Below, in pieces: positions 811 to 58,787 of a stretch of DNA of 60,577 nt. Position 1 is the stretch's first letter; every line of letters begins with the position of its first letter. Below the pieces are notes generated by a model. The model was not told the DNA's origin, made no database searches, and worked only from the letters and a program-made list of their open reading frames with translations. This DNA is from a virus. Lineage: Duplodnaviria; Caudoviricetes. The position numbers and the translations under genes were made by a program. The stretch spans positions 1 through 60,577 of the IMG/VR virus record IMGVR_UViG_3300020045_000790. One strand, given 5' to 3'.

Positions 811-1155
811 ATGAAAACAATTAAGAATCATTTAGAATCAGAGAAAGCAGCAGCCAAACCAAATCAATTAAGAATAGACGAACTGACTAAGATACTTTAC
901 AGAGGAACTCTAACGCTTGAGGAATGGAGAATGACGGGTAGATTTACACCCGCAGAAGAATACCTTAGCAGAAATGCAGATGTAAAACTTGCAAAGAATT
1001 GCAAGGAGATAATCGAATATGTTGGGGACAATATCATAAAGGTATTGAGCACAGGATATTTTGTCTTTGAAGACACTAAGAGCAAGAACCTTGACGAGGT
1101 TGAGAATAAATTATGGTCAGCTACAGCAGAGAAATTGTGGTGCGAAAATTGTTAA
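811..1155 (+). CDS. hypothetical protein (likely start ATG 811)
   Basis: ORF track 757-1155 begins at a TTG with low-complexity Asn-rich sequence; MKTIKN at 811 has a better start context. Confidence 0.6.
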   Translation: MKTIKNHLESEKAAAKPNQLRIDELTKILYRGTLTLEEWRMTGRFTPAEEYLSRNADVKLAKNCKEIIEYVGDNIIKVLSTGYFVFEDTKSKNLDEVENKLWSATAEKLWCENC

Positions 1156-1197
1156 TAACTTTATAAATAAAATGAACGAGATATGAACATTTATTAT

Positions 1198-1205
1198 TAT
1201 CTTTG
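1198..1205 (+). promoter_or_regulatory. Bacteroidota sigma-A -7 element TATCTTTG
   Basis: Matches TAnnTTTG, 21 nt upstream of ORF 1227. Confidence 0.6.
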
Positions 1206-1226
1206 TTTTTTTAAAAATCAAATCAA

Positions 1227-1529
1227 ATGAAAGAAGACGTGTTTAATCAATACATTGAAAGGGTAGCAAACCTTTTCAGTATTACAAAAGAAGAATTGTT
1301 TTCAAAGTCTAAGAAAAGAAACTTAGTTGATGCAAGACAATTAGTTTATTACCTATGCTCTAAGAGACCTATACAAGTTACATACATTCAGAAGTATATG
1401 AGCGATAATGGTTATTCAGTTAGCCACTCATCAATCATTCACGGAATAAATGTAATGAATAGAAAAGTCGAGGAGGACAAAGACTACAAGACCATTGCTC
1501 ACGAAATTGACAGAGCAGTATTTATTTAA
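1227..1529 (+). CDS. DnaA C-terminal (domain IV)-like HTH DNA-binding protein
   Basis: ELFSKSKKRNLVDARQLVYYL...HSSIIHG resembles DnaA domain IV (R..v..RQ.amYL...dHtTVih). Confidence 0.65.
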   Translation: MKEDVFNQYIERVANLFSITKEELFSKSKKRNLVDARQLVYYLCSKRPIQVTYIQKYMSDNGYSVSHSSIIHGINVMNRKVEEDKDYKTIAHEIDRAVFI

Positions 1530-1555
1530 TCAGTAATCAAATTTAATTTAATCAA

Positions 1556-2272
1556 ATGGAAAAAACAAAATCAACTTTTGATGTATTGTCGGCAGTTAAT
1601 GTGAACGACAAAGTAGAAAAGAAAAGCAACCTAACGTACCTATCTTGGGCTTGGGCTTGGGCAGAAGTTAAGAAGGCTTGCCCTGACGCTTCTTATGAGA
1701 TAAAGGGAGACCCTATTACTCAAAAACCATACTTCTATGATGAGAATCTTGGGTATATGGTAATGACAGAAGTAACTATCGAAGGAGAAACTTTGGAGAT
1801 GTGGCTACCTGTTATGGACGGTGCGAACAAATCTATGATGGCTAAACCATACACCTACAAAGGTAATGCTTGGGAAGGTGGAAGAAAAGTAGTTGTTGAC
1901 AAGACAGTCGAAGCAGCTACTATGTTCGACATTAATAAGACATTGATGAGATGTTTGACTAAGAACTTAGCGATGTTTGGATTAGGGCTTTACATTTATG
2001 CAGGAGAGGATTTACCTGAGGCAGACACTACACCTGCAACACCTGTTCAAGCACCTACAAGAGCAGAAGCTCAAGCACAACCTCAACAACCTGCACCTAC
2101 ACCTGAGTTAGCAGAGCTTAAAAAAGGTACAGAAGATTGGACTAAAGTTGTAGATTATATTACAGCAAACAAGTCATTAGGTATTGAAAAAATTGGCAAG
2201 CAATTGAATAGAAGATACAAGATGACACCTGCCATCAAGAAAGAAATCTCTAACTTAGTATCAGCAGAATAA
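1556..2272 (+). CDS. Sak (Rad52-like, DUF1071) single-strand annealing protein
   Basis: LTYLSWAWAW, WLPVMDGANK, INKTLMRCLTKNLAMFGLGLYIYAGEDLP signature. Confidence 0.85.
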   Translation: MEKTKSTFDVLSAVNVNDKVEKKSNLTYLSWAWAWAEVKKACPDASYEIKGDPITQKPYFYDENLGYMVMTEVTIEGETLEMWLPVMDGANKSMMAKPYTYKGNAWEGGRKVVVDKTVEAATMFDINKTLMRCLTKNLAMFGLGLYIYAGEDLPEADTTPATPVQAPTRAEAQAQPQQPAPTPELAELKKGTEDWTKVVDYITANKSLGIEKIGKQLNRRYKMTPAIKKEISNLVSAE

Positions 2273-3018
2273 TGGGGAAAGTAAACGAACACGTACTTGA
2301 GTTATTAAAAGATGACAAAGAGTACTACGGAGGTATTGGAAAAAATTACTTATCCAATTCAGACATTGGTACATTACTAAACAACCCAAAAGAGTTTGGT
2401 AAAGAAAGAGAGGACAACAAGGCTTTTATGGAAGGCAGATACTTCCATCAGTTAATACTTGAGCCTGAGAAAGCAAAAGGTTTATTGTATGTTGATGCGA
2501 GCACTCGTACAACAAAAATCTATAAAGACTTTTGTGAGACACACAACTTACCGTTCTGTATGCTACAAAAAGAAAAAGAAGATGTTGAGGCATTGGTAAA
2601 AATAATCAATGGTAACATAGCTTTCTTTGAGGAGTTATACAAGAAAGGAAATCAGTATGAGGTTCCTGCTGTTGCAGAGATTCAAGGTATGATGTGGAAA
2701 GGTAAGGCAGACATTGTAACAGACAACGCAATCATTGACCTAAAAACCACCTCAGACATTGATAAATTCAAATGGAATGCTAAGAAGTACAACTACGATT
2801 CTCAATGTTATATCTATCAGATGTTATTCGGCAAGCCTTTAGTGTTTTACGTTATTGACAAGACTACAGGAGTACTTGGTATCTTTAGACCAACTGAGGA
2901 GTTTATACAATCAGGAGAAACTAAGGTAGGAAGAGCTATTGAGATATTCAATAAGTATTTTGGAGACAATCCAACAGACGACATTGAGAACTATTACATT
3001 GACGAATACCTATTTTAA
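2272..3018 (+). CDS. PD-(D/E)XK exonuclease (RecE/ExoVIII-like)
   Basis: LSNSDI, GRYFH..ILEP, KGKAD...IDLKTT, Y..Q...Y motifs; coupled to the annealase gene. Confidence 0.8.
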   Translation: MGKVNEHVLELLKDDKEYYGGIGKNYLSNSDIGTLLNNPKEFGKEREDNKAFMEGRYFHQLILEPEKAKGLLYVDASTRTTKIYKDFCETHNLPFCMLQKEKEDVEALVKIINGNIAFFEELYKKGNQYEVPAVAEIQGMMWKGKADIVTDNAIIDLKTTSDIDKFKWNAKKYNYDSQCYIYQMLFGKPLVFYVIDKTTGVLGIFRPTEEFIQSGETKVGRAIEIFNKYFGDNPTDDIENYYIDEYLF

Positions 3019-3187: not shown

Positions 3188-4000
3188 ATGAAAAAATTAT
3201 TAGCATTAGCAGTATTAGTATTAGTAACAATCGTTTTTATAGGTTGTGAGAGAGTAGCACCAAATTACTATGGAGTATTAATGGAAAACTACGGTAAGAA
3301 CGGTAAGGACGACTACGTTAAACAACAAGGTAGAGTAAGTACAATATCTCCCGGCACAGAATTATTTCAGGTTCCCGCTTGGGAACAAAGAGGTCAGTTT
3401 ACGGACGACGAAGGTAAGGACAGAACATTACAAGTGAAAGCAGCAGACAATACAGCATTTACTTCTAAGCCTTTATATTCATACAAAGTAATCGAAGCTA
3501 AGGTAGTTGATGTTGTATTTCAAAATTCAAGATTAGGTTCAGGAGATGACTTTATGTTGGCATTACAGGATAATGTATTAGAGCCACGTATCTATGACAT
3601 AATTAAAGAAGCATCGAGAAGCTATACGACAGAACAATTAATGGCTAATGGAGGTTCTTTAATGTTTGAGAAGTATGTTCAGGATATAGTTTCAAAAGAA
3701 TTTGATAAATCAGGTTTGAAGTTAATTAGTTTTAGTCTTAACTTAGACTTCTCTAAGAAAGTAAAAGCTAAGATTGACAGTCGAAATGAGGTTAATACAA
3801 ACATATCAGTATTAGACCAACAGATAGCTGAACAGAAAAAACGAAATGAATTAGAGGCATTAAAAACCGAACAGAATAAAATAAGAAGTGCAGGTATCAC
3901 TCCTCAGATTTTACAAGAGAAAGCAATTAACAAATGGAATGGTAAACTACCAACTACATATTCAGGAAGCGGACTACCTTTCGTTAAAGCTGTGAACTAA
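3188..4000 (+). CDS. SPFH/Band-7 domain protein, probable lipoprotein
   Basis: Signal peptide ending FIGC, RVAP..YGV, C-terminal coiled coil and KWNGKLP. Confidence 0.8.
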   Translation: MKKLLALAVLVLVTIVFIGCERVAPNYYGVLMENYGKNGKDDYVKQQGRVSTISPGTELFQVPAWEQRGQFTDDEGKDRTLQVKAADNTAFTSKPLYSYKVIEAKVVDVVFQNSRLGSGDDFMLALQDNVLEPRIYDIIKEASRSYTTEQLMANGGSLMFEKYVQDIVSKEFDKSGLKLISFSLNLDFSKKVKAKIDSRNEVNTNISVLDQQIAEQKKRNELEALKTEQNKIRSAGITPQILQEKAINKWNGKLPTTYSGSGLPFVKAVN

Positions 4001-4200
4001 TGGAACAATCTATAAGAACACAAGAACAATTAAATGATTTAAGAAGAAACGAACATTTAATATCTGACTTACATACAGAAGAAGGTGGGTGTCAATTCAG
4101 AATGGTTGATGGTATAAAAATATATCAGATTGAAGAAAAAACAGACGAGGACAGGAGAATGAATAACGCCATAAATCTTTGGCGTATGCGTAATCGTTAG
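4000..4200 (+). CDS. hypothetical protein
   Basis: ORF track; TAATG overlap with upstream gene. Confidence 0.5.
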   Translation: MEQSIRTQEQLNDLRRNEHLISDLHTEEGGCQFRMVDGIKIYQIEEKTDEDRRMNNAINLWRMRNR

Positions 4201-4231
4201 AACCAAGTGTCTTTAAAGACACAATCAATAT

Positions 4232-7575: not shown

Positions 7576-9038
7576 CGAGAGACCCGGGGTATAACAACCA
7601 CGAAATGTGGAAAAGATGTGAACTTCTAAAGATGGTGGTAACACAAACGATAGATGTAAAAGAAGGTAGGGGTAAAAATGTTAAGGTATATCAGAAATAC
7701 AAACACAATACCCCTCAAAAAGTAATTGATAGGATAATCAATAGCTGCGAATACTATAAGTCATTATACGAAAAAGATATGGAAGTAAAAGAAGTACTTA
7801 CGAATGGAACTATTCAGTACAGGGATTATCAGTACGATATAATAAAGAAAGGTTCTGAGATTTTATCAGAGAATGGATTTGTTTATCTCGCTATGGAGGT
7901 TAGAACAGGTAAGACTCTAACAAGCCTTGGAATTGCAGCTACAATAAAAAGCTCTGAGGTATTATTCTTAACTAAGAAAAAAGCAATATCAAGTATTGAA
8001 GGAGATTACAAAAGCCTTGCACCGTCATACAATCTTACGGTTATTAACTACGAGAGCATTCACAAGTTACCAAATACCAAATGGGATTTAATTGTTTGTG
8101 ATGAGGCTCATAGTTTAGGTGCGTTCCCCAAGCCAAATAAAAGAGCAGAACAGGTCAAAGAGCTTATTGTGAAAACAAACGCAAAGGTAATTTTGTTATC
8201 AGGAACACCAACTCCCGAGTCATATTCTCAGATGTATCATCAGGTTTATGGAATACCAAAAAATCCTTTTCGAGATGTTAAAAATTTTTACAGATTTTGT
8301 GATAACTTTGTGAAAGTTACAACTAAGATTATAAATGGTCTATCAATGAATGATTACTCTAAAGGATTGGAGACAATTATTCAGGCTATGGAGCCATTCA
8401 CAATAAATTATACTCAGGAAGAAGCGGGATTTGTGTCTAAGATAACTGAGGAGATTTTTGAGGTAGAGCTAAAAGAATCAACCTATAAGTTGATTAAAAA
8501 GTTCATAAAAGATTTGGTTGTTCAAGGAAAGGAAGAGGTTATCTTAGGAGATACCCCTGTAAAGTTGATGATGAAGCTGCATCAGTTACACTCAGGAACT
8601 ATTAAGTTTGAGAGTGGTAAGTCGATGATATTGGATACGTCAAAAGCTGAGTTTATAAAAGAGTCTTGGGAAGGTTGTCAGATTGCTATCTTCTATAAGT
8701 TCAAAGAAGAGTTACAGGCATTGAAGCAAGTATTCGGAGATGAGCTAACAACAGAGCTTAGTGTCTTTGAAGACACACATAAGAACATAGCATTGCAGAT
8801 AGTTTCAGGGCGTGAAGGAATATCTTTAAGGAAAGCAGAGTATCTTGTGTACTATAATATTGATTTTAGTGCAACAAGTTATTGGCAATCAAGAGATAGA
8901 ATGACAACTAAGGACAGACCTGAGAACGAAGTGTTTTGGATATTCTCAAAAGGAGGTATCGAGCACGAGATTTATAAGGCAGTAACTAAAAAGAAAGATT
9001 ACACATTAGCACACTTTAAAAAAGATTTTTATTTATGA
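7539..9038 (+). CDS. SF2 (SNF2-like) helicase
   Basis: EVRTGKT, DEAH, LSGTP, GREGISL, QSRDR motifs; exact start uncertain. Confidence 0.85.
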   Translation: MFSMQYENEEIIARDPGYNNHEMWKRCELLKMVVTQTIDVKEGRGKNVKVYQKYKHNTPQKVIDRIINSCEYYKSLYEKDMEVKEVLTNGTIQYRDYQYDIIKKGSEILSENGFVYLAMEVRTGKTLTSLGIAATIKSSEVLFLTKKKAISSIEGDYKSLAPSYNLTVINYESIHKLPNTKWDLIVCDEAHSLGAFPKPNKRAEQVKELIVKTNAKVILLSGTPTPESYSQMYHQVYGIPKNPFRDVKNFYRFCDNFVKVTTKIINGLSMNDYSKGLETIIQAMEPFTINYTQEEAGFVSKITEEIFEVELKESTYKLIKKFIKDLVVQGKEEVILGDTPVKLMMKLHQLHSGTIKFESGKSMILDTSKAEFIKESWEGCQIAIFYKFKEELQALKQVFGDELTTELSVFEDTHKNIALQIVSGREGISLRKAEYLVYYNIDFSATSYWQSRDRMTTKDRPENEVFWIFSKGGIEHEIYKAVTKKKDYTLAHFKKDFYL

Positions 9039-14100: not shown

Positions 14101-17100
14101 AGCCTTAGTATATTCAACATCTTCATCTGTAAATATATCTTTTCCGCTACTTATAGATTCTTTAATCATAGCAGAGTAAACATCAAAAGCTCGTTTTATT
14201 GTAGCTCTTACTATTCCCTCATTGTATTTGTTTGTCTTAGCCTCAGGCTCCAATAGAGCTAACATTTCTTCAGCACTAAACTCAGAAGCATCTACTCCCA
14301 TTAGGTCCTGCAATTCAACAATCATCTCTTCACGAATTTTTTGCTCTTGCTCTTTTAATGTTTCTGAAGTATAATCTGTAACCTCTTGTATGTTTGTGGT
14401 CTCAGCAAATCTAACTTTCTGACCTCTAACAGACGAACCTGTTATAGCTTCTTTTAGTTTTGATGCTATTTCATTGTAAGTCTCAATATCTTCTACTAAT
14501 GAAGGGTCGATTTTAGTAAATTGAGAAGCCGCTATTCTAAGGTTAGCATTTTTATCTTTGTTCTTAGATAACTTTTTTAAGCTACTTCTAAATCCTTTTG
14601 CATCTTTTATTTTAGCAGAATAATCTGCGTTCTCAAAAACCTTAGTCATATAGGTAGTAAATCTATCTACAGACTTAGCACTAAATACATTTACTTTACT
14701 AAAAGCACGTATAACATTTGCAGCTTGGTCTGAAGTAATTTTACCTGACGCTTTTAATTCTTTAACATCTTTACTAAGTTGTTGACTTGCTAATTTAAAA
14801 GCTCTAACAGCATCTCTCGCACCTCTCGCTAAATCTTTAATTTGTTTTTTAAGAGCTACTTTTTCAGTCATTGTAATTTTTTTGACATCTTTAATCTTGC
14901 CAAATAATCTTGCAACTGACGGTGCAGCTTTCTCTCTTAAACCAAATCTTTTGCGAATATCACGCACCAAAGCCTCACGCTGTACATCTGTGGCGTTTTC
15001 ATAAACTTTTGAGCCCATAACATAGCTAATAACATTATCTGCTATTTTAGCCTCGTTTACGCCTCTTCTTTTAGATTTCTGCACGATACCTTCAACCTCT
15101 CCCATCATTCTGTCATATCCGGGTAAGTCTTGTTCGTTTATTTCTTGAGAAACGTTTTCCTCTGCTAAGTTTTCAGCGACCTCAGTCTCAGCCTGCGTAT
15201 CTCCCGCAAGACCCTCTGTCCAAGTCCACTCAGGCATAAGCCCTGTCTTTTGGTCAGCAAAAACTGTATCTTCAACTTTGGCAGTTCTGTTGTTCTCTCC
15301 TTCAGGACCGTAGTTAAGCCAAGAGTTTTGACCTCTTGTCTCACTTGTGATAGCACCTTTAGCAGGACCTGTAAACAATCTGATATGAGCCTGCCAAGCA
15401 TTCTCTTCTCCTCTTGCTCTAAATCCTGCACCTTCTAATCCGTGTCCAAAAGCATCGTGTACAGCTCTGAATAAATCGTTAGCAAGAACGGGCATCTTAG
15501 GTCCGTCTAATCCTCCAACGCTCCATTCAAATCCTGTCTCAGCTAAAAGCGGATTATCATTTACATCTAATTCGCTTGTACCGAAACCTTCAACAGTTGG
15601 GAAAACACCCATTTGTTTGTTTTGGCGTAAATCACGCATAGCATTATATGGACTTGCCGCATACTCAACATTACTTGGTATGTCCAAATCCATAAACCAA
15701 AACTTATATCCTGCATCAACTAACGCTTGATATTGAGCAATGGTCTGTTTGATAAGCTCAGCGTATGCTTCTTTTACTTTTGGGTTCTGAGGGTCGTGAG
15801 CCATTTCTTCGTAAGCCTGTGCTATACGCTGAGCTCTTTCCTCATCAACTTCTACATACTCTGATTGTCGCTTGAGGTCGATTCCATTGTCGGCTGCGTA
15901 TTGTTCTGCAACGCTGACAAGTTGCGGGTCCGGTCCTGTTGCCCCTTGTATTGTTGGCGAACCTTCAAGAGGCGTAATTTCCCTGCTATCAGTCCGTCCT
16001 GTTCTGTCTCCGGTGCGTTCGGGTTGTACTGTTGGTTGTTGTCCTGTTTCATTTTGTGTTTTTATTTGAGTTGTTGGTTGTGTCTTTGAAGACACTTGTT
16101 CTTCGATGATAGTTTGCGGTGCAGTCGCAGGAAGTAAACTTTCAACAGCTTTTACTAATTCAGGGTTACTTCCGTCTTCCTTAGCTATTTTATAAGCCTG
16201 TGCTATAGATGACGTATCACTTATGCTATATTGTTCACTTGGCATTAATTGTTCTCCTTCAATATCTAAAACTAAAGGAAGAGTCTCTTCTAATATTTTT
16301 GCATCTATGGAGTCTAATGATTGAACTACAGAATCTACATTTACCTCCGGTTGAGTTTCTGTAACAGGTTTATTTGAATTAATATATTCTTTAACCTGAT
16401 TAACACTTTCGTTAATTACTTCTTTTCCCTTTAAATCAGATTTTGTAACTTCATCTAATATGGCTTTTATACCTTCAGATGTAGATGTATTACCATTAGG
16501 AATAATAAATTCAAAAGTATTTGTAGCAGACCTTCCAAAATTATCTGAAGAAGGAGTTATTATTGTTAGTAATTTATTTCCATCATCTGAAACTGTATCT
16601 TCTGCAATTACTGATTTGTATTCATTCAAATCTTTTTGTTGCTCAACAGGTAAAAACCCTCTTCCGTCTTTAGGGGTAACTATATCTTCTGCATTTATTC
16701 CTTCTGAATATTGCAATCCAAATCCATTTACAGCTCCGTGAACAACAATAGTAGGCTCTTTTACTTCTTCTTGCGTAGCTTGCTCGGTAATGATTTCAGG
16801 TTTTGGTTCGGATATTCCTTCCGCCACCGTTTCGCTAATTCCGGTTTCTGACTGAACAGGAATCGCTGTTGTGCTTTGCTCTTGAATGGCATTTGTCTCG
16901 CTTAATTTAGTTAGTGAATCATTTATTTCTGCAATTCTATTTTTTTGCTTTACAACTAAGGCAGGGTCTTTCTCGTTGATATAGTTTTCTAAATCTCTTT
17001 TTTCTTTTAAAAGATTCATAGCTTCTTTTTTACCTTGAGTGTCAATACCATCAGGTAATTGTCTGAACAATCCAACTGAATTTCTATAATCGTTCAATTG

Positions 17101-31690: not shown

Positions 31691-31727
31691 AAAAAATATA
31701 GAGAGTGTCTTTGAAGACACTCCCTAT
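31691..31727 (-). terminator. terminator after the major capsid gene, built around the 16-bp palindrome
   Basis: ATAGAGAGTGTCTTTGAAGACACTCCCTAT stem flanked by A and T runs. Confidence 0.6.
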
Positions 31728-36806: not shown

Positions 36807-39049
36807 CTAATTAATTGACTATTAGTTCCATCATTTGAATACCTTGCGAAGTTAAGAATAATTTTTGAATCTTTTTTCTCAGGTAGATATAAATGCTTTT
36901 GATTAGCCATAATAGCCAATCCCGAGCTAATTGAGGCATCAAATTTAGTCCTGTCGTTTATATCAAACTTCGCCCAATCCTCCAATGTTCTTATAAAAGG
37001 CATATTGCCAATCTCATCAGGGTCTCTATATATACCACCCATATCGAAACCAATGTACTTTTCGATATAAGATTCAATAGCAGATGCGTGAGACTGCTTA
37101 ACATCTTCAGAAGAGTTTGGTATTCCTCCGAGCTCACGTTCTGTTTTTGTAAGTTTGTTGTATTGTTTGTCAGGTCTATTTAGTGAGAAACCTCTATATC
37201 CTCTGTTTTTGAAATGGTATAAAAGCCTTGGCTTATTATTCTCTATAAGAATAGGCATACCGTAAAACACACAAGCCATAAGAACATCTTCAAAAAATAT
37301 CTCAGCGGTTTGTGGTCTTGCTATGTATTCTAAGAAAAACTCATTTGAAGGAGCTTCGTCCATATTGAATTTAGTCAATCCGTGAAGAGAACCATTAGAC
37401 CCTCTACCTCCAACTACCGCAGAAATATCATACGGGTCGCAGCCGAACGAACCAATATGGTCATTTCCGGGATATTTAATACCTCCTCTTATATGAACAT
37501 TATTTTGTAAGTGTCTTGCCGGTGTCCAACTAACTAAGAACCTGCCTCTTGAATCAGGAGTGAATACAACCTTAGTATCTTTCATTCCGTCTAACCAATG
37601 GAAAGAACCTTTTGTTATATAGTGCTCTTTAATTAAGCTGTCATTATAATCTATCTGTTGGTATATCTTCGTAAGGTTGAACAAAGATTGTTTACTCTCA
37701 TCTCTAAAAGCGTGAGACTCTGTTCTTGGGAACTGACGATAAAACTCGTTAAGTGCATCGGCATCATTCTTCAATGAATCAACCTCTGCTTCCCAATAAT
37801 CTATTGCACCATTTTTTATCCAAGAGTTATCAACTCCCATAATTGACTCTTTCGGCTTGTAGAATACAGGCATACCATATCTGTCAATAAATCCTTCCAT
37901 ATTCCATTCCATAGGAATAAATAATGAATACAGCCCTGATTTGGTTTGTCCGTTGGCATTTCTAATTGCAACATTAGAATCCTCGTACATATCCTTATAG
38001 TTTTGTCCTCCTTTTGATAAAGCATTTGAAGTTGAACCCATCATACACTTTCCAATAATCTTAGAACCTAATCGAAGACAAGTTTTGGTTACTCGCCAAT
38101 TCTCTTTAATATTATTCGGCTTGGTCCATTTACCGCTTTCATCGTGAGCTAAGAATAAAAGTTTTTCCCCGTCATACGAGTTGTCCTCTGTATTCTTCCA
38201 ATCTATTGATGTATCTAATCCTTGTATTATTTCAGCCTCTGAATCATACATATTTTTCTTCGTAATCTTAGAAGCAGGTACTCTAAACGCTAATTCTGTT
38301 TTAGGTTTATCCATACCGTCCATAATTGGTTTGAAGAAAAACGGAAGTCTGCTATTGATAGGAACAACTTTGTCTGTAAACATTTTTTTGGCATCGGCTC
38401 CTGTTTTAGATAAGATACCAACCCGTGAATCTTTTGCAAGTGTTCCAATATTAACAGCTTCAGAAGAAGACATAAAAGAGAACCCTGAACGTCTAATTTT
38501 AAGATATATCATTCCGAAACATCTCTCATCAGCTTTGCAGGCTTCCCAAAACAACCAATAGATTCTATTGGCTTCACGAAAGTCAGGATAACCAACGTCA
38601 ATACTTGACCATTGTAGGTACATATAATGAGAACCGGTTATATAGGTTTTGACTCCATTGTTCATAAACCAAAAGCCCTGTTCTCTAAAATCAAATTCCT
38701 GTTCAATATAATCTACCCATCTGTTTTTAAATTCAGCAGGCATTTCATTCCATTGGAATATTGATTGTATTCTTTGTAGTGATTTAGGAAGCGGCTGTCT
38801 TTCCCAATATTGTTCAGCCTTACTTGAGTGTCTTTGAAGACACTTGTCGGGAGTAGGTGGTAGTGCTATATAAACACCTGAGATATTTATTATATCTCCG
38901 ATTTGTCCTGTTTTGGAAATTACTACTACATTGTATTGGTTATTATAGCCATATATCCAAGACTTCACTCTGTTCTTATTAGAGATAACGCCCTTAGGTA
39001 TATAGTCATTGACTACAGTGTATAAGTTATTTTGACCTTCTTTCTGCAA
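36803..39049 (-). CDS. terL: terminase large subunit
   Basis: KIRRSGFS Walker A variant, HDESGKW Walker B, MGST, nuclease GCDPYD, IENNK, TKFDA. Confidence 0.85.
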   Translation of the reverse strand: MQKEGQNNLYTVVNDYIPKGVISNKNRVKSWIYGYNNQYNVVVISKTGQIGDIINISGVYIALPPTPDKCLQRHSSKAEQYWERQPLPKSLQRIQSIFQWNEMPAEFKNRWVDYIEQEFDFREQGFWFMNNGVKTYITGSHYMYLQWSSIDVGYPDFREANRIYWLFWEACKADERCFGMIYLKIRRSGFSFMSSSEAVNIGTLAKDSRVGILSKTGADAKKMFTDKVVPINSRLPFFFKPIMDGMDKPKTELAFRVPASKITKKNMYDSEAEIIQGLDTSIDWKNTEDNSYDGEKLLFLAHDESGKWTKPNNIKENWRVTKTCLRLGSKIIGKCMMGSTSNALSKGGQNYKDMYEDSNVAIRNANGQTKSGLYSLFIPMEWNMEGFIDRYGMPVFYKPKESIMGVDNSWIKNGAIDYWEAEVDSLKNDADALNEFYRQFPRTESHAFRDESKQSLFNLTKIYQQIDYNDSLIKEHYITKGSFHWLDGMKDTKVVFTPDSRGRFLVSWTPARHLQNNVHIRGGIKYPGNDHIGSFGCDPYDISAVVGGRGSNGSLHGLTKFNMDEAPSNEFFLEYIARPQTAEIFFEDVLMACVFYGMPILIENNKPRLLYHFKNRGYRGFSLNRPDKQYNKLTKTERELGGIPNSSEDVKQSHASAIESYIEKYIGFDMGGIYRDPDEIGNMPFIRTLEDWAKFDINDRTKFDASISSGLAIMANQKHLYLPEKKDSKIILNFARYSNDGTNSQLIR

Positions 39050-47320: not shown

Positions 47321-47659
47321 TTAAACTTTGCTTATACGATTCCCCATACCTACTCTCGACTTTTCTGCTTTTTTTGCAATAAGCTTAGACTTACTAATTT
47401 CAGATATAGTCTTAGGTGTCTTTGAAGACACTTTTACCTTAGGTCTGCAATACTCATTTTTTCCTCCTGCACCACACGCTTTTCCTGTGCGAGTATCAGT
47501 CCACTTCTCTTTTTCCCATCTTTTTAAAGACGTTCCTTCAGAAGTTTTTCTAACACTACCCGATGCCTTTCTACATTTAGCAATAGCCTGAGAAGCTCTT
47601 GCCGATGGAAAAGCATCATATTGTGCTTTTACTTTTTTATAACAAGCATCTTTTGGCAT
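47321..47659 (-). CDS. small basic protein (LKRW..EKW motif)
   Basis: ORF track; K/R-rich. Confidence 0.65.
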   Translation of the reverse strand: MPKDACYKKVKAQYDAFPSARASQAIAKCRKASGSVRKTSEGTSLKRWEKEKWTDTRTGKACGAGGKNEYCRPKVKVSSKTPKTISEISKSKLIAKKAEKSRVGMGNRISKV

Positions 47660-51520: not shown

Positions 51521-53123
51521 AACTACGAGCCATTGTTATAATTGCATTTGTACTCAAGATTGTTACAGCTACACTCACTGCATTTTGTAACGCACTTCGA
51601 GTTACCTTCAGTGGGTCAATAACACCCATCTTAATCAAGTCGCCCATCTGTCCGGTTTTCAAGTTGTAACCGTGCCCCGGCTCTACAACATCAGGATATA
51701 CATCTGAAGCTTTCAGTCCTGCGTTAGCAAGTATCTGTAAGAACGGAGCCATAAGTGCATCTCTAAGAACAGCAACTGCAATATTGTACTCAGCACTTTT
51801 TCCTTCTTGATGGTTGCTGAACATAGCAGCACTCTCTTCAAGTAATGCCTTACCTGCACCCGTCAAAATACCTTCCTCTAAAGCTGAGCGAACTGCACAA
51901 ACAGCATCATCAACTCTATCGTATAGCTCTTTTTGCTCTAAATCAGTCTGTCCACCAACGTAAATTACGCCAATTCCTCCTGTAAGTGAAGCAATTCTCT
52001 CTAACAAGAAGTCTTTGTCTGCTTTTTTGGTAGCGTTTTTATGTGCTTCCCACAATTGGTCCACTCTTTCTTGCACTGCATCTTCGTCCAATCTCAAATC
52101 AGACTTGATAATCACAGTTTTATCTTTACTGACAATCACTTTTGCTGCGTGTCCTAAGTCTCCGAAGTTGATAATACTTAAATCGTCCCCTGTTTTCTCA
52201 CTGAAGTACGTTGCACCAACACTAAGAGCGATGTCTTGCATCAACTCGTGCTGCTTATATCCGAAACTTGGAGGAGGAACTGCACATACTTTCAGATTTC
52301 CCTTCACTGAGTTCGCTGCCAACGTGTTTACCACATTCGCATTACACGGAGAAATAATCAATAGCTTCTTTCCTTCAGAAATAATTGGCTTCAATATGTT
52401 CTCAATCTGCAAAATGTTCGCAATCTCCATATCAGCAACCAATACCATAGTGTCTTCAAGGACACATTCGTCTTTCTTATGGTCATTGATGAACATAGAG
52501 CTCATATAACCTCTGTCAAACTTCAATCCCTTGGTGGTCTCAGCATAAGTCTCATCGTTTTGGCTTCTCTCAACCGTTACAATACCACTTTTACCAACGT
52601 CTTTGTACACCTCAGCAATAATTCGCCCGGTCTCACGGTCATTGTTCGCTGAAATACTTGCTACATCTACCAACATTGAAGTCGTTAACCTCTTGCTCTT
52701 ACGTCTTAGGTTATCCACCACGTTGTCGCTCAGTTCCACCAATGCTCTCAACACCTCTGTTCTGTTGTGCTCTTCTTTAATTTGGTTTAATCCACCCAAT
52801 ACTAAAGCCTCTGTCAAGACAATCGCTGTAGTTGTTCCGTCTCCCGCATTTGTAGCGGTACGCTCAGCAGCCTCTTTCATCATCTTAACCGCAAGGTTCT
52901 CAACAGGGTCAAATAAATCAATACTCTTAGCAACCGTTACTCCGTCTTTCGTTACAGTAATCCCGTGCGTGTGATTAGGACTCTCAATAAGAACAGTATT
53001 ACCACCCGGTCCTAATGTACTCTTTACAGACTTAGCCATTTTGGCTACACCATTAGCTAATTTCTTTCTTCCTTTATCCTCAAAATGTAAATCTTTTGGG
53101 GAATAACCTTGATTTTGTGTCAT
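51495..53123 (-). CDS. groEL: phage chaperonin GroEL
   Basis: TLGP.G, TKDGVTVAK, GDGTTTA, FDRGY, GVIDP.KVTRSALQNA; lacks the GGM tail. Confidence 0.95.
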   Translation of the reverse strand: MTQNQGYSPKDLHFEDKGRKKLANGVAKMAKSVKSTLGPGGNTVLIESPNHTHGITVTKDGVTVAKSIDLFDPVENLAVKMMKEAAERTATNAGDGTTTAIVLTEALVLGGLNQIKEEHNRTEVLRALVELSDNVVDNLRRKSKRLTTSMLVDVASISANNDRETGRIIAEVYKDVGKSGIVTVERSQNDETYAETTKGLKFDRGYMSSMFINDHKKDECVLEDTMVLVADMEIANILQIENILKPIISEGKKLLIISPCNANVVNTLAANSVKGNLKVCAVPPPSFGYKQHELMQDIALSVGATYFSEKTGDDLSIINFGDLGHAAKVIVSKDKTVIIKSDLRLDEDAVQERVDQLWEAHKNATKKADKDFLLERIASLTGGIGVIYVGGQTDLEQKELYDRVDDAVCAVRSALEEGILTGAGKALLEESAAMFSNHQEGKSAEYNIAVAVLRDALMAPFLQILANAGLKASDVYPDVVEPGHGYNLKTGQMGDLIKMGVIDPLKVTRSALQNAVSVAVTILSTNAIITMARSYEQAEEVL

Positions 53124-53500: not shown

Positions 53501-53731
53501 CTAATCACAATCAGAACACTCTCCCATTTCAGACATCATCTCGCCCATAGCTGTACCCTTAGCTACAATCATAACCTTCTCAGCTCGCTTCATAGACTTT
53601 CTAATGTCAGAAGCTTGAGCAATGCCCGTTTGACCATCAGGACGATTGTTAATCAATCTCCCGTTTCTAACAGTTAATCCATCGAACTTAGAACCCGAAT
53701 AGATACTGTCGCTTGTGGCGGGGCTTCGCAA
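53501..53731 (-). CDS. small protein, 5' end possibly truncated
   Basis: ORF starts at TTG at the strand switch; followed by a hairpin at 53458-53479 and a T run on the minus strand. Confidence 0.45.
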   Translation of the reverse strand: MRSPATSDSIYSGSKFDGLTVRNGRLINNRPDGQTGIAQASDIRKSMKRAEKVMIVAKGTAMGEMMSEMGECSDCD

Positions 53732-54299
53732 GGTTTTTGCGGTGTCTTTGAAGACACAAATTGATGAGCTTATTTTCGTGCTGTCTGTTCACTATGCGTG
53801 CGTGCGTGCGTGGGCTGTTGATTGCGTGGCTAATTGGTTTGCATCAGAAGAGGGCAAACAGGCAACAGCCGAAGCAGGTATCTATTGGAGTAATGAAGCC
53901 ATAGGCTTAAAGGTTTTTGGGTGGCAAAAATCGTATTACTACAAAGTATTAAAAGCAGGTAAATTGGACGATGCAATCATCGAGGAGTTTAACAGCCTTT
54001 GCGACCAAGCCGAAGCACAGGGTCAAGAGCCAAACAGAAGTTTAGAGGGCTTGCTTAAATTCACTCGCTCAGGAGGTGGAGAAACCACAGGCGAAGCAGG
54101 TGGAGAAGAGACAGAAGAGGGAGAGGGAGAAGCCACAGAGAGAGCTATCGAGGTTAGAATACCTACAATTTTCACGATGACGTACAAAGGTGGCGAGAAA
54201 AACGTTTCAGTTCGTGTAAACGAAAATAACGAGGTAACGACTACCAACAGCCGAGAGGAAATCTTAGCAGCAATAGAATTTTTAACTAATTTAATCTAA
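53715..54299 (+). CDS. hypothetical early protein, N-terminus uncertain
   Basis: Protein-like from about ANWFASEEGK onward; first ~35 codons run through the palindrome and (GCGT)n. Confidence 0.5.
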   Translation: MAGLRKVFAVSLKTQIDELIFVLSVHYACVRAWAVDCVANWFASEEGKQATAEAGIYWSNEAIGLKVFGWQKSYYYKVLKAGKLDDAIIEEFNSLCDQAEAQGQEPNRSLEGLLKFTRSGGGETTGEAGGEETEEGEGEATERAIEVRIPTIFTMTYKGGEKNVSVRVNENNEVTTTNSREEILAAIEFLTNLI

Positions 54300-54334
54300 T
54301 CAGTGTCTTCAAAGACACACAAATTTCAATCATT

Positions 54335-55252: not shown

Positions 55253-55268
55253 TACCTAAGGGCTTTGC

Positions 55269-55317
55269 CCGTCCCTAAGTGAGTGCTTAGGCTGATGAGT
55301 TCAAAAGAACGAAACGG
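55269..55317 (+). ncRNA. hammerhead ribozyme 1 (type III)
   Basis: CCGUC^ / stem I CCUAAG-ugagug-CUUAGG / CUGAUGA / stem II GUUC-aaaa-GAAC / GAA / ACGG. Confidence 0.9.
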
Positions 55318-55337
55318 AAACCTTAAATTCAATTATT

Positions 55338-55529
55338 ATGAAAGCAGAAATTTGTTTAAAATCGTTTAGTGTAGCAGTTATTTATTTGTCTATTGCCTTA
55401 GGTTTAACCTCAGGTTATTTACAGCAGTTTTTTAAATTCAACTCAGTTGATAGCGAAATCTTTATGGCGTTGCTATGCGGTACGTTTGGGCTTTTATGCT
55501 TAGGCGTTTCAATCAAAGTTAAGCGATGA
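55338..55529 (+). CDS. small two-TM membrane protein
   Basis: Two hydrophobic segments; starts 20 nt after ribozyme 1. Confidence 0.6.
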   Translation: MKAEICLKSFSVAVIYLSIALGLTSGYLQQFFKFNSVDSEIFMALLCGTFGLLCLGVSIKVKR

Positions 55530-55569
55530 TAGTGCGGTAACGCAAAGGTCGAGGAGGGCAAACCTCCTC

Positions 55570-55618
55570 CCGTACACAAGTGAGTGCTTGTGCTGATGAT
55601 ACCAAAAGGTTGAAACGG
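55570..55618 (+). ncRNA. hammerhead ribozyme 2 (type III)
   Basis: CCGUA^ / CACAAG-ugagug-CUUGUG / CUGAUGA / U-ACC-aaaa-GGU-U / GAA / ACGG; compensatory changes relative to ribozyme 1. Confidence 0.85.
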
Positions 55619-55637
55619 AAACTTTAAATCAAATCAA

Positions 55638-55832
55638 ATGACAAATTCAAATTTTGTGTCTTCAAAGACACACGCAGAAATCGTAAAATTTCACGAATGG
55701 TTAGAAGCTAACCGAAACATTTACTTAGCAGACAAGCAGAGAATGGACAGAGCTTACAACATAGTCCGAGAGAATGTAGAGCAACAATATACCTCGAGAC
55801 AGCCTGTAAATACAGGGGCTAACAAATTTTAA
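55638..55832 (+). CDS. hypothetical protein
   Basis: AAATCAAATCAAATG start context; 19 nt after ribozyme 2. Confidence 0.6.
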   Translation: MTNSNFVSSKTHAEIVKFHEWLEANRNIYLADKQRMDRAYNIVRENVEQQYTSRQPVNTGANKF

Positions 55833-55852
55833 CAAAATATTAACATTTTAAA

Positions 55853-55885
55853 TTTGGTACGTGTCTAATTCTCGTCTTATATTTG
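55853..55885 (+). promoter_or_regulatory. Bacteroidota sigma-A promoter (-33 TTTG, -7 TATATTTG)
   Basis: 21-nt spacer; near-copy at 57556-57587. Confidence 0.75.
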
Positions 55886-55922
55886 TCGAAAATTAGTTCA
55901 TTAACCTTTAAAACATAACACT

Positions 55923-56477
55923 ATGAGAAAAATAACAGAACAGGTTGTCGGTGCTTTTGAAAACTACAACATAAAAAAAGTAGGTAACACCGAGACAGAC
56001 GGAACGAGCCTTTGGCTATTTGGCAATAAGATTGCAGAACACAGAGCCGACGGAATATGGATTACTAACGCAGGGTGGAGTAGCCCAACAACTAAGGAAA
56101 GACTAAACGGAATTACAGGCGTACACATTACGCAAAAGAAAGGCGAATGGTTTTTGAATGGTCATCGTTGGGACGGAGAGTGGGTTTGCTTGAATGACTT
56201 GACCTTGCTTACGGAACAGGAAAGCGAGACAGATTTTGATACCACAATGGAATGGGTTGATAACTACAGCAGACCGATTTACTCAGTGTACCATACACGC
56301 ATCGAGGCAGAGCTACAGCAGATTGAAATGGTGCTTGCTGTTATGGGAATAGCCACCCGCAGAATGTATTCAGATACGCAAGGTGCTTACAAACCTAATC
56401 ACTTTATCGTCGTACCTGTACAAGAGTTCGAGAGAGCAAAAACTTTTATTAAAAAAGTGTCTTTGGAGACACTATAA
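55923..56477 (+). CDS. hypothetical early protein
   Basis: LFGNKIA...GWSSPTTKERLN motif. Confidence 0.65.
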   Translation: MRKITEQVVGAFENYNIKKVGNTETDGTSLWLFGNKIAEHRADGIWITNAGWSSPTTKERLNGITGVHITQKKGEWFLNGHRWDGEWVCLNDLTLLTEQESETDFDTTMEWVDNYSRPIYSVYHTRIEAELQQIEMVLAVMGIATRRMYSDTQGAYKPNHFIVVPVQEFERAKTFIKKVSLETL

Positions 56478-56554
56478 AACCAATTAACTATGAGAGCAAT
56501 ACTAAGATTTTTGCAAGAGTTAGCAAATGCTTGTCCGAGAGAGACAAAGTGGTA

Positions 56555-56608
56555 GGCAAACTGATGAGACTTCAATAGTCGAAACCCGATTTAGTTCGGG
56601 TCTTTGTC
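56555..56608 (+). ncRNA. hammerhead ribozyme 3 (type I)
   Basis: GGCAAA / CUGAUGA / GACU-ucaau-AGUC / GAA / ACCCGA-uuuagu-UCGGGU / C^ / UUUGUC. Confidence 0.9.
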
Positions 56609-56629
56609 AAACAATTAAAAATTAAAACT

Positions 56630-56848
56630 ATGAGAATTATTGTAGAGTATTGCCCAAACATTTCAAAAGATGCACAGAAAATTATTAGAGACAACGTAAC
56701 ACCGTCTATGATTTCAAATGACGAAACGAGTTGTCAGTATGAGATTAGTATGTGTTTAGAAGAGTTGATTGAAAACGATGTATGTGTTGAAGATTATAAA
56801 GTTATAACTTCTTTAATAGAACAGGGCGTTAGCTATTTAGAATTTTAA
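56630..56848 (+). CDS. small acidic hypothetical protein
   Basis: ORF track; 21 nt after ribozyme 3. Confidence 0.6.
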   Translation: MRIIVEYCPNISKDAQKIIRDNVTPSMISNDETSCQYEISMCLEELIENDVCVEDYKVITSLIEQGVSYLEF

Positions 56849-56853
56849 ATAGT

Positions 56854-57018
56854 ATGGAAGAGATTTGGTACTTTGAAGATTGGGTAAACGAGATGCTTAA
56901 CCAATCAGACTATTCAGAATTTGAGTTGATGTGCTTTGAAGAGTATTATCAAAACTTATTAGACTATGAACAAAATACAGAAAACTTTTTAAATAGAATT
57001 TCAGATGAAGAAGATTAG
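56854..57018 (+). CDS. 54-aa highly acidic protein (not in ORF track)
   Basis: MEEIWYFEDWVNEMLNQSDYSEFELMCFEEYYQNLLDYEQNTENFLNRISDEED. Confidence 0.55.
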   Translation: MEEIWYFEDWVNEMLNQSDYSEFELMCFEEYYQNLLDYEQNTENFLNRISDEED

Positions 57019-57403
57019 AATTACTAAAGAAGACCAATTCGTTTGGCTTATAGTTACAGAAAAAGCAAAGGAGATTTTCCTTTCAGGCTTATTCGAGCTG
57101 TATATAATCTACAGCGATGATAGTGAGTGTTTAATCGAAGGCTTCGGTCAATTGATTGAAGCGATTGAGGACGGACAGGACATAGGCATAGAGGTCGGAT
57201 TTATCAGCGATGACATAGACTTGTTCGACCACTACAGCAGAATACCTAAGAAGATTAGATATATCATTGAGACCTACACAGACGCTTCAGAGTTCAGTGC
57301 AGACGATTGCAAAGCTATGCTCAAAGACTTAGAAGCTAATGGATACACCTTTGACTATGGATTAGACTTTCAACCTATTAACCTTAGACCAAATGGAGAA
57401 TAG
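57005..57403 (+). CDS. acidic hypothetical protein
   Basis: ORF track; C-terminal GYTFDYGLD motif. Confidence 0.6.
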   Translation: MKKIRITKEDQFVWLIVTEKAKEIFLSGLFELYIIYSDDSECLIEGFGQLIEAIEDGQDIGIEVGFISDDIDLFDHYSRIPKKIRYIIETYTDASEFSADDCKAMLKDLEANGYTFDYGLDFQPINLRPNGE

Positions 57404-57554
57404 TCATACATTTAGAATTACCTATGACAAAAATTTTGTTTGTTATGTGATAGCCCGAACAGACTTCGAGGCGATTGACAAAGTTTACAACAGAAACTTA
57501 GACCAACCCCCTGACTTATTCAGAAAACTTTTTAATGCAAAAAAATTAAAATAA
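57393..57554 (+). CDS. 53-aa hypothetical protein (not in ORF track)
   Basis: MENSHTFRITY...FNAKKLK; overlaps the upstream stop. Confidence 0.45.
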   Translation: MENSHTFRITYDKNFVCYVIARTDFEAIDKVYNRNLDQPPDLFRKLFNAKKLK

Positions 57555-57555
57555 A

Positions 57556-57587
57556 TTTGGTAGTGTATAAATTTTGTCTTACCTTTG
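57556..57587 (+). promoter_or_regulatory. Bacteroidota sigma-A promoter (-33 TTTG, -7 TACCTTTG)
   Basis: 20-nt spacer; followed by a palindrome copy at 57617-57632. Confidence 0.75.
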
Positions 57588-57654
57588 TCTAAATTTAATC
57601 AAATAATCAGAGTTCTGTGTCTTCAAAGACACTGCTCACAAATCAAATCAAACT

Positions 57655-58746
57655 ATGTGCGTAATTATCGTAAAAAAAGCAGGACTAAAAGTTCCAACAG
57701 AAGTATTAAAATCATCAGCAAAAATTAACCCTCACGGATTAGGTATCGTGTGGCTTGACGATTACAGAGTTACCTATCACAAATCATCAGAGTACGCCAT
57801 ACTCGACACCGACAAACCTTACATTGCTCACTTTAGATATGCGACCGTTGGTGCTATCGGCAGGTCAAATACACACCCCTTTGTGTGTGGCTCAAACAAG
57901 AACGAGTTGCTTATGATGAATGGAACAATCAAAGGACTTGGAAACCTAAAAGATAGCGACAGCAAGATATTGGCTAATTCGCTTGGAAAAGTTTCGAGAC
58001 ACCTGTGGAAAAAAGAATTAGAGCGTTACGATTGCAGGTTCGTTACACTTAACACACGCAACAAATCGTATCAGATGTACAACAAACAAGATTGGCATCA
58101 CAAAGACGGAGTTTGGTACAGCAAGGATAATGTACTTGAGACCAACTATGTGGCTGTATATGGTACATTGAAAAAGCATTATAGCAACTATTGGGGCTAC
58201 CTTACAGCTTCATCGTTTATAGGTAGCGGTAACACACAGGACAAGTATCCGCTTATCATCAAGGGATTGCCTTACCTAATAAACAAAAAAGGCACAGGAC
58301 ATAAAGTTGCTGTAGATGTATTCAGAGTTACCGACAGAGTTCTTAAAGATTTAGATACTTTAGAGGGACACCCTGTTTGGTACAAGAGAGAGCAGATTTA
58401 TATTGACGTGAAAGGTAAAAAAGTATTGTGTTGGATTTACTTCAACTTACGTGAGACAGACATAGGTCAAGTACACCATAAGACATATACTCAAGCACCT
58501 AAGGTTTGGAATAGTCCGTCTCCTTACAAGTGGAATTACCCTACCAAAAATTTATTCTCAAATACATACATTGATGACTTTAGAGATTTACCTGAGGTAG
58601 ATGACGAGTTCGATGTAGAGAATGAAATACCTATGTGCGTAGCTTGTTACAATGATTTAGAGTTCGATGGTTTCAATCTATACCATTGCCAACAATGTAA
58701 TACGTGGCACACAGAAACAGATGTTTTAAAAAGTTTTAATTACTAA
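57655..58746 (+). CDS. class II glutamine amidotransferase fused to a gamma-glutamylcyclotransferase (AIG2-like) domain and a Zn ribbon
   Basis: Cys2 (MCVII), NPHG.G, HFRYAT, NTHPF, NG, DS; VYGTLK...LDTLEG..Y.R; CVAC...CQQC. Confidence 0.8.
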   Translation: MCVIIVKKAGLKVPTEVLKSSAKINPHGLGIVWLDDYRVTYHKSSEYAILDTDKPYIAHFRYATVGAIGRSNTHPFVCGSNKNELLMMNGTIKGLGNLKDSDSKILANSLGKVSRHLWKKELERYDCRFVTLNTRNKSYQMYNKQDWHHKDGVWYSKDNVLETNYVAVYGTLKKHYSNYWGYLTASSFIGSGNTQDKYPLIIKGLPYLINKKGTGHKVAVDVFRVTDRVLKDLDTLEGHPVWYKREQIYIDVKGKKVLCWIYFNLRETDIGQVHHKTYTQAPKVWNSPSPYKWNYPTKNLFSNTYIDDFRDLPEVDDEFDVENEIPMCVACYNDLEFDGFNLYHCQQCNTWHTETDVLKSFNY

Positions 58747-58787
58747 CAGGGAGTGTCTTCAAGGACACTCTCACAAACCTTAACAAG

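Follow-up and report, generated by a model that had tools for sequence, protein, structure and literature searches.

Several systems are known in which one short site recurs on a phage or plasmid replicon and is read by a dedicated protein, or in which ribozymes punctuate a phage operon. Phage lambda has about two copies of boxB in its genome, and its N protein is a small arginine-rich peptide; on the IncP plasmid RK2 there are 12 KorB operators. The portion of the KorB literature drawn on here describes a dimeric helix-turn-helix protein whose palindromic operators lie over the whole replicon and which acts as a global regulator both at promoters and from afar (PMC11790492). In an extract of the work on Cluster A mycobacteriophages, stoperators are asymmetric and are bound by the monomeric immunity repressor of temperate phages, and the bound repressor halts elongation (PMC9283540). 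Hammerhead ribozymes that flank genes in phage and prophage operons are, in the section of Perreault et al. 2011 used here, taken as processing the transcript into single-gene mRNAs (PMC3088659). Here, a dispersed palindrome, GTGTC-N6-GACAC (N, any base), was analyzed in a window of 60,577 base pairs (bp), the complete virus record IMGVR_UViG_3300020045_000790 of IMG/VR, together with its relatives and with gpE1, the product of the first early gene. We regard it as about an even call that the palindromes are the operator set of a dimeric helix-turn-helix protein, putatively gpE1, nested in intercistronic RNA hairpins.

Copies and conservation of the palindrome

A pattern scan of the window returned 13 exact matches to GTGTC-N6-GACAC, against a mean of 0.01 and a largest value of 1 in 100 dinucleotide shuffles of the same sequence, and a 14th copy, at 1061, differed by one mismatch (TTGTC...). 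Two poorer resemblances, one at 12792 (2 mismatches) and one at 30317 (3 mismatches), were treated as chance. The longer consensus was GTGTCTT-NN-AAGACAC, with 7-bp arms around a 2-bp centre of TG, CA or TA. By the curated list of open reading frames (ORFs), nine of the 14 copies lie in ORFs (1061, 8761, 16080, 38828, 47416, 52450, 53742, 55656 and 56457) and five are intergenic (4207, 31705, 54303, 57617 and 58753). Over 500 rounds of synonymous-codon shuffling of the 70 curated ORFs, in-ORF sites averaged 0.166 and never exceeded 2, against 8 exact sites observed. The palindrome is real and strongly selected. Six copies stand within 53742-58768, with 561-1353 bp between neighbours. No occurrence of four 16-mers of the palindrome was found in the literature searched.

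The original prediction, made from the letters of the window, had counted at least 14 near-identical copies, nine of them in ORFs in various frames and on both strands and six in about 5 kb past the strand switch, and these figures were reproduced. The peptides it had read through the sites were also right: SVFEDT in the helicase, VSSKT in the giant protein and also in the DUF5872 protein, CLQRH in TerL and CVLEDT in GroEL. The density gradient it had described was not borne out as one running from a genome end; it reflects the early operon, where most intercistronic junctions hold one site.

Conservation was followed over 7 genomes and 78 loci of an uncultured podophage family. After sites less than 100 nucleotides (nt) from sequence ends and duplicate contexts had been dropped, 222 non-identical sites were retained; the relatives are related among themselves, so that these counts do not represent independent events, and family ORFs were called crudely (ATG starts, at least 40 amino acids). 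The centre classes were GTGTCTT-CA/TG-AAGACAC (125 sites), TA (20) and CG (4). By the crude caller 123 of the 222 sites were intergenic, and for the 91 located between same-strand genes, 62 lay no more than 22 nt after a stop codon and 42 stood 8-25 nt before the next ATG. The circular relative MW202828.1 carries 14 identical copies of GTGTCGTTAACGACAC, with the same arms and other inner bases, all in its early block and mostly 3-13 nt past a stop and 16-23 nt before the next ATG.

Between genomes with 58-78% protein identity, sites inside ORFs kept syntenic positions in the genes for the helicase, TerL, GroEL and the DUF5872 protein; their centre flips from TTTGAA to TTCAAG or TTCAAA, changing E to K. 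In the window these are the copies at 8761..8776 (helicase), 38828..38843 (TerL; syntenic in G004 and G005), 47416..47431 (DUF5872 ORF, 47321-47659) and 52450..52465 (GroEL). The copy with one arm mismatch, TTGTCTTTGAAGACAC at 1061..1076 in ORF 757-1155, recurs as the same T-variant at the same codons in G003, G001 and L107, and the copy at 16080..16095, inside the ORF for the 2732-aa giant protein and read as VSSKT on the minus strand, has a syntenic counterpart in G003 at 35327. Motif-less relatives use other codons at such places: G007 encodes VSSKT of the DUF5872 protein as GTA TCT TCA AAG ACG, which keeps the peptide and loses the site, and both G007 and G008 encode CVFEDT as TGC GTA TTT GAA GAC ACT, with no site in GroEL. 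Taken with the codon shuffles and with a swap at the same helicase codons in the relative G041 (described below), these comparisons support selection on the nucleic acid and not on the peptide. The original prediction had argued this from the window, and conservation in related phages, where sites are syntenic and kept at the same codons, agrees with it.

Changes within the arms were also counted. Among 16 near-variants, 10 had one arm change, 5 had two changes at unpaired positions, 1 had a paired non-complementary change and none was compensatory; in G004, position 6 was C or T independently in the two halves (C/C 4, C/T 8, T/T 5; our own count). Because the arms never covary, while hammerhead stems in the same genomes covary freely, the alignments point to a sequence-specific reader of the sites.

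gpE1 as the candidate reader

The binders named in the original prediction, a winged helix-turn-helix (wHTH) protein at 49416 and DnaA-C-like proteins at 1227 and 10076, do not track the motif, since all three genes are carried by five relatives (G006-G010) that have zero sites anywhere (tblastn; wHTH 60-76% identity, the three genes together 38-76%). A further locus, L063, has a wHTH protein 76% identical to that of the window and no site within 10 kb downstream. What stands of the earlier proposal of a site system for a DNA-binding protein is a set of dispersed sites with what appears to be a dedicated, phage-specific reader; the proteins put forward to bind them are not supported.

gpE1 co-occurs with the sites. 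Its gene (53715..54299, + strand) was found by tblastn in five of six motif-bearing relatives, the sixth, G001, being a fragment that begins past the locus, and in none of the five motif-less genomes. A gpE1 profile likewise gave no match in the five motif-less genomes at E<=1, with a control of 5/5 motif-bearing genomes, which were training members. In 50 further records, 22 had the gene and sites, 18 had neither, 8 had sites without the gene, and 2 had the gene without a GTGTC site. The 8 contigs with sites only end less than 3.2 kb after the wHTH gene, short of the place of gpE1; the 2 with the gene only are G032, a fragment with the gene at its very end, and G041, which is complete. At L137, the first early gene is a remote gpE1 homolog (hhalign, 97.8%) and the sites keep the arms with the inner bases free. 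In every motif-bearing genome examined, a site stands 122-434 nt upstream of gpE1; in G003 and G004 it lies upstream of promoter-like boxes, these being identified by eye (all promoter boxes reported here are pattern matches or by-eye readings).

The gpE1-upstream site is flanked by short C-rich or CAGCCAA-type tandem repeats (e.g., CTGCCCC) at L046 5760-5870 (G004), L055 11480-11520 (G003) and L137 13230-13268. The repeats are iteron-like and could be an origin or an upstream promoter element.

The sites also co-vary with gpE1. The complete relative G041 carries 15 exact copies of a different palindrome, GTCTGTT-NN-AACAGAC, with 0 copies of it in the window, G008, G034 and G032. The G041 copies are placed as those of the window are: 275 nt upstream of gpE1, 35 nt past its stop and after the capsid-like gene. 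The copy before the GGCT-like gene sits between conserved flanks, and that in the helicase is at the same codons, giving SLFQQT in place of SVFEDT. On the + strand the centre is C-N in 13 of the 15 copies and GG in the other two. The gpE1 of G041 is only 27% identical to the G003 protein, and the putative recognition helix (positions 88-98 in the G003 protein) differs. At L158 (L158/L159 being G041), three copies of the alternative palindrome form stem III of type I hammerheads.

No Pfam, PHROG or PDB-sequence-profile match was obtained for the gpE1 family, which comprised 365 clusters at 50% identity (E<=0.001) among representative proteins. Its Atlas matches were unnamed viral clusters only, with DUF3102 as the nearest named family (29% of members, score 0.91). 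The AlphaFold2 model (predicted local distance difference test, pLDDT, 83 for the whole protein and 91 for the domain alone) consists of nine helices, a disordered acidic linker and a small beta-beta-alpha domain, and residues 76-98 of the model resemble a helix-turn-helix, in which a Ser is invariant and Lys residues are nearly so. ParB-family DNA-binding domains (Spo0J, KorB, SopB, Noc) recurred among the fold matches at Z 4.2-4.8. These included 1vz0_A (Z 4.8, root-mean-square deviation [rmsd] 3.5, 95 aligned), 1r71_A (Z 4.3, rmsd 2.7-3.9, 72-96 aligned) and 3mkw_B (Z 4.4, rmsd 3.1, 74 aligned), and 6y93_B was matched by Foldseek at E 5.5, all four being tied with unrelated helical proteins. 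No simple rule was found that ties the position-6 variants (T, C, G) to putative recognition-helix residues.

In the window, the 5' end of the gpE1 gene looks rearranged over 53708-53828, with a (GTGC)n-like run at ~53795-53815 and with the site at 53742..53757 here, in the divergent control region. In close-strain contigs the points of divergence are 53714 and 53828, and there are ~394 extra bases there as well as an 'opposite strands' joint; the rearrangement may have come about by deletion or by inversion, or may be an artefact of assembly.

The reader that co-evolves with the sites would be phage-encoded, and the ~200-aa gpE1 is the likeliest candidate. A gpE1 dimer would bind double-stranded DNA at two 5-bp half-sites, GTGTC and GACAC, with centres 11 bp apart. 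The site in the apparently untranscribed divergent control region upstream of gpE1 would permit autoregulation. Together with the remaining sites, most of them at early cistron junctions and a few in late genes, it would belong to a set of operators or roadblocks, spread over the genome, by which early transcription is timed or shut off, presumably by repression, in the manner of KorB operators or Cluster A stoperators. At the junctions the palindrome occupies the tip of a hairpin that closes each cistron, often directly 5' of a hammerhead; by this placement the same 16 bases would also be read as RNA structure.

RNA setting and competing explanations

A setting that the original prediction had overlooked is that the sites stand at the tips of sense-strand hairpins beside hammerheads. 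A pattern search returned 35 hammerheads in the family, with the palindrome no more than 70 nt upstream in 13 of them and forming stem III in three more. Three elements are in the window, each preceded by or containing a hairpin. A type III hammerhead (55265..55319, +; predicted cut after C55273) lies between the genes at 54335-55252 and 55338-55529 and has a 14-bp generic hairpin on its 5' side. The second type III hammerhead-like element (55566..55620, +) was assigned from its sequence and by-eye comparison with L055:13705-13759, outside the 22-row alignment described next, and it may be weak, the first pair of its stem II being U:U. The third is a type I, RAGATH-1-like hammerhead (56531..56607, +; predicted cut after C56602), for which the minimum-free-energy fold shows three stems with a z-score of only -1.08.

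For 22 type III hammerheads, including that at 55265-55319, the core columns were invariant, 99.7% of cells were paired and 11/14 pairs were compensatory, a covariation reached by 0/500 shuffles; rows had been chosen by requiring the core and stem II pairing, with stems I and III not required. The elements have the core CUGAUGA...GAAA, an NUH cleavage triplet and three stems with covariation. Scores in Rfam were below gathering thresholds: on a 1.4-kb piece of the window, HH9 scored 17.6 bits (gathering 52) and RAGATH-1 (RF03152) 23.7 bits (gathering 56.3; E 0.32), and at L137 three Rfam hammerheads scored 32-44 bits, with Hammerhead_3 at 44.1 against a gathering value of 48.5. A gathering-threshold search of the window and three loci returned only a tRNA (L046), and E-value searches of the whole window and of 53100-60577 returned no hammerhead. 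In metatranscriptomes (three RNA runs from two studies), relatives were covered in gene-sized contigs, e.g., 54342-55249, and a DNA run was continuous over 53826-56480; this is only a hint, as contigs cannot show RNA ends.

Of the early sites of the window, that at 54303..54318 lies 3 nt past the gpE1 stop and 16 nt before the ATG at 54335; that at 58753-58768 is 6 nt past a stop, with 19 nt separating it from the ATG at 58788, and with a 4-bp outer stem (58749..58772, +), which requires a G:U pair on the sense strand, folds at -13.7 kcal/mol. GTGTCTTTAAAGACAC at 4207..4222 comes 6 nt after ORF 4000-4200 ends, and the ATG at 4305 is 82 nt further on; GTGTCTTTGGAGACAC at 56457..56472 overlaps the end of ORF 55923-56477. 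The copy at 55656..55671, 18 nt past the ATG of ORF 55638-55832, is syntenic in G003 and G001. The site at 57617..57632 lies 22 nt before the ATG at 57655, a spot occupied in G041 by the alternative palindrome between conserved flanks; a Bacteroidota-type -7 box, TACCTTTG, with TTTG upstream (57580..57587, +; pattern scan only), would place this site inside the 5' leader of a transcript. Upstream of ~15 start codons, e.g., at 57640-57654, there is a leader motif, AAATCAAATCAA...ATG, with the 9-mer AAATCAAAT present 15 times, and the 5' leaders of the window are A/C-rich and almost without G.

In the late block, the site at 31705-31720 has a 7-bp outer stem extension followed by a U-run (31698..31727, -; -17.7 kcal/mol). 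Standing after the capsid-like gene (31742-33172), it resembles an intrinsic terminator. The same place holds a site in G004 (21173) and the alternative palindrome in G041 (38886), and in both a U-run also follows the hairpin. Most sites have no U-run, and termination was rejected as a general explanation. A host-type promoter was rejected as well: the flanks of the palindrome have no conserved -33/-7 partner, and TAnnTTTG boxes exist elsewhere. Cistron-closing hairpins, whether or not a ribozyme accompanies them, seem to be common to the RNA of the family in general. Where gpE1 is present, one fixed palindrome sits in these hairpin tips, in further places in ORFs and upstream of the promoter-like boxes of gpE1, and it changes only along with gpE1.

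Several observations weigh against the proposal that the sites are gpE1 operators. The gene co-occurs with the whole early module (the genes at 54335 and 57655 and the hammerheads), from which the phyletic signal cannot cleanly separate it. The gpE1 of the window is without the N-terminal ~24-50 residues of its relatives and may be defective, and all 14 sites are nonetheless intact. Single sites are dispensable, that in GroEL being missing from the close relative G003. Foldseek returned nothing for gpE1 at E<=0.001, and the ParB-family Z scores are inside the stated noise range of the tool; the analogy with systems of the ParB/KorB kind is reasonable, gpE1 being predicted to have a helix-turn-helix, a linker and a small C-terminal domain, and its ParB-family fold matches stand at noise level only. 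The remaining points favour reading at the level of RNA. At L137, the inner six bases are non-palindromic. An outer stem of at least 4 pairs was present at 32/91 intergenic sites on the sense strand and at 4/91 on the antisense strand (in ORFs, 5/99 and 4/99), the outer stems at these intergenic sites covary, with G:U pairs required only on the sense strand, and the intergenic centre on the sense strand was CA in 56 and TG in 14 (in ORFs, 36 and 39). In motif-less G006, generic GC-rich hairpins fill the same slot of stop, hairpin, leader and ATG.

Such transcript-level features are what would be expected if an apical stem-loop, 5'-GUGUC-loop-GACAC, were read in sense transcripts by a protein, gpE1 or another early product, a serious rival and the main one, to which we give well under even odds. 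It would stabilise 3' ends left by ribozyme or RNase, control translation of the next cistron, 15-25 nt downstream, or act in termination or antitermination like lambda N/boxB. The intergenic placement close after stops and before ATGs, the host-type box upstream of site 57617, the C-N centres of G041, the hammerheads with a site upstream or as stem III, the terminator-like U-runs after some sites and the hairpins of G006 at the same position all fit it. Against it, the 16-mer without extension has a fold energy of no more than -5.6 kcal/mol, C:A and U:G are equally frequent at pair 6:11 when the sense strand is read (10 vs 11), and G-avoidance in the A/C-rich leaders could by itself explain the centre bias. 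The in-ORF sites, in both orientations and with no stem extension, point to DNA; the conserved gpE1-upstream site is apparently outside predicted transcripts, and the candidate reader is modelled as resembling a helix-turn-helix protein. Both levels would be served if the sites were DNA operators of gpE1, a minimal ParB/KorB-like silencer timing the lytic early operon, and also RNA hairpin tips capping cistrons after hammerhead cleavage; palindrome and reader would then be interchangeable specificity pairs, and all ~15 sites, those in essential ORFs included, would be rewritten in concert when the reader changes. In this full form the account is rather unlikely. The hairpins of G006 in the same slots, the mosaic early region, in which genes are exchanged between relatives, and the terminator-like copies also suit a cassette that has no dedicated reader and was spread by recombination, like T4-type promoter-stem-loop cassettes or repetitive extragenic palindromic (REP) elements, uniformity reflecting recent copying and function being that of a generic terminator or exonuclease barrier. 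We judge this improbable: in-ORF sites are held at the same codons at 58-78% protein identity, forcing amino-acid changes, all ~15 positions were switched jointly in G041, the in-ORF helicase site included, and the arms never covary as true RNA stems of the same genomes do.

Two further explanations carry little weight with us. That the sites belong to a ParB/parS-, MatP- or Noc-like organiser or protector, bound by the wHTH, a DnaA-C-like or a host protein and marking the first-entering end, as the original prediction had it, is very improbable. A 16-bp palindrome dispersed irrespective of gene borders and a wHTH gene found family-wide (at least 459 relatives) are in keeping with such a system; the siteless genomes that carry the wHTH and both DnaA-C-like genes, and siteless L063, are not, and neither a ParA-like gene nor a ParB N-terminal domain was found in 70 ORFs (PHROGs) or 25 (Pfam). 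Nor does the motif show any sign of being a host chromosomal system, as had been suggested: among the 124 stretches listed from a 185,579-species set, there were scattered single matches in many phyla and one phage-like contig. That contig, WTJX01000555.1 (56 kb, binned in a Cytophagales metagenome-assembled genome), has five window 16-mers within 10 kb, at 45633-55330 (L187-L190, L237); it is probably a phage of the same family and gives a weak hint of the host. N4-like hairpin promoters, at which the 2732-aa giant protein would serve as a virion RNA polymerase, are scarcely credible. A giant virion-type gene is present with a crAss-like muzzle domain adjoining, and sites crowd the early region, where they stand 15-25 nt ahead of start codons. 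The giant protein, however, has no Pfam family or PDB sequence match at E<=1 and is poorly conserved among relatives, host-type promoter boxes occur in the early region, one of them upstream of a site, and sites also follow late-gene stops and lie inside ORFs. A related Elemovirus also has a giant protein and no such motif, and the extract of the phi14:2 preprint used here reports no common motif upstream of the early transcripts of that phage.

The genome, its family and known systems

The genome is podophage-like. A leftward late block holds GroEL/GroES, lysis and tail genes, TerL, portal, the capsid-like gene and the 1609-aa and 2732-aa proteins; a rightward block runs from ~53.7 kb across the record ends to ~11 kb, with small early genes followed by Sak, exonuclease, primase and helicase. 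TerL is 45% identical to that of Flavobacterium (Elemovirus) and Cellulophaga phages; these TerL relatives and the Cytophagales contig suggest a host among the Flavobacteriia or Cytophagia. A search of IMG/VR with the wHTH protein gave at least 459 relatives, 80 loci of which were retained. A PHROG scan of the 70 ORFs detected neither an integrase nor a lysogeny module. Elemovirus MT497017, which has the same genome plan, has no repeated palindrome, and tblastn found no gpE1, wHTH or DnaA-C-like homolog in it; 31 more distant loci having only the GGCT-like gene in common had no GTGTC site.

PF25731, the N-terminal part of the crAss muzzle protein, is matched by the 1609-aa virion protein (24105-28934, -; E 1e-11), and a small protein (50091-50555, -) has a crAss001_48-related domain (PF21825); these matches link the group to crAss-like tail architecture. 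Two GroES-like genes accompany GroEL, phrog_13932 (39878-40441, -, 187 aa), which adjoins the packaging genes, and phrog_3188 (49831-50088, -, 85 aa). In the 52-bp gap at 49364-49416, between the lone + wHTH gene and the leftward gene 48942-49364, two facing Bacteroidota-type -7 boxes make a near-palindrome, TATATATTTGTACAAAGTTA. Three loci without gpE1 (L077 14844-15516, L089 14644-14830 and L114 12894-14072) have 3-5 copies of TTACAAATGTAA, clustered near the divergent control region and 3-5 kb downstream of the wHTH gene; this sequence may be the operator of a different regulator.

If gpE1 reads the sites, they would be a compact means of genome-wide control in a large uncultured phage family, as judged by the marker-gene relatives in IMG/VR and the gpE1 clusters. 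The family offers a natural experiment in which ~15 dispersed sites and their putative reader shift specificity jointly, even where this alters amino acids of the helicase. Putatively protein-binding palindromes, cistron-ending hairpins and hammerheads are combined in one intercistronic module, through which the long-open purpose of phage hammerheads becomes directly testable. For use in Bacteroidota, the parts could supply orthogonal operator-repressor pairs and ribozyme insulators.

Among known systems, KorB is resembled in the modelled part order of gpE1, which is that of the C-terminal two-thirds of KorB (DNA-binding domain, flexible linker, small C-terminal domain), and the KorB DNA-binding domain is among the weak fold matches. 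Sequence searches do not connect gpE1 to the KorB family. The helical DNA-binding part of gpE1 is predicted to start by ~residue 35 of ~200, which would leave no room for an N-terminal CTPase (ParB/Srx) domain of the ParB type, and no ParA/IncC partner was found. The replicon is a phage without integrase in the PHROG scan and not a plasmid, and the present sites are inside transcription units, at RNA hairpin tips. With ParABS the locus shares a ~16-bp palindromic site, here in 13 exact copies; ParBc was not matched by Pfam in gpE1 or 26 family members, and the ORFs searched (70 with PHROGs, 25 with Pfam) held no ParA-like family.

Like stoperators, the sites are many copies of one short sequence, mostly in short intergenic gaps within operons (123/222 intergenic, 62/91 no more than 22 nt after a stop), with one phage protein as their reader, putatively so here. 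Unlike stoperators, they are palindromic with only the 2-bp centre orientation-biased, they also occur in ORFs and double as RNA hairpin tips, and no lysogeny genes were found. As in Perreault et al. 2011, a polycistronic phage transcript carries several hammerheads between its genes; the section of that paper used here describes no conserved palindrome or hairpin 5' of the ribozyme or as its stem III (PMC3088659), and the present palindrome also occurs without a ribozyme. The lambda N/boxB system is approached in the short early-transcript hairpin, in a candidate reader encoded by the first early gene, and in hairpin and protein that co-vary between related phages. It differs in that there are ~14 copies here, some of them in late ORFs and in an apparently untranscribed region, and that the candidate reader is a folded ~200-aa protein.

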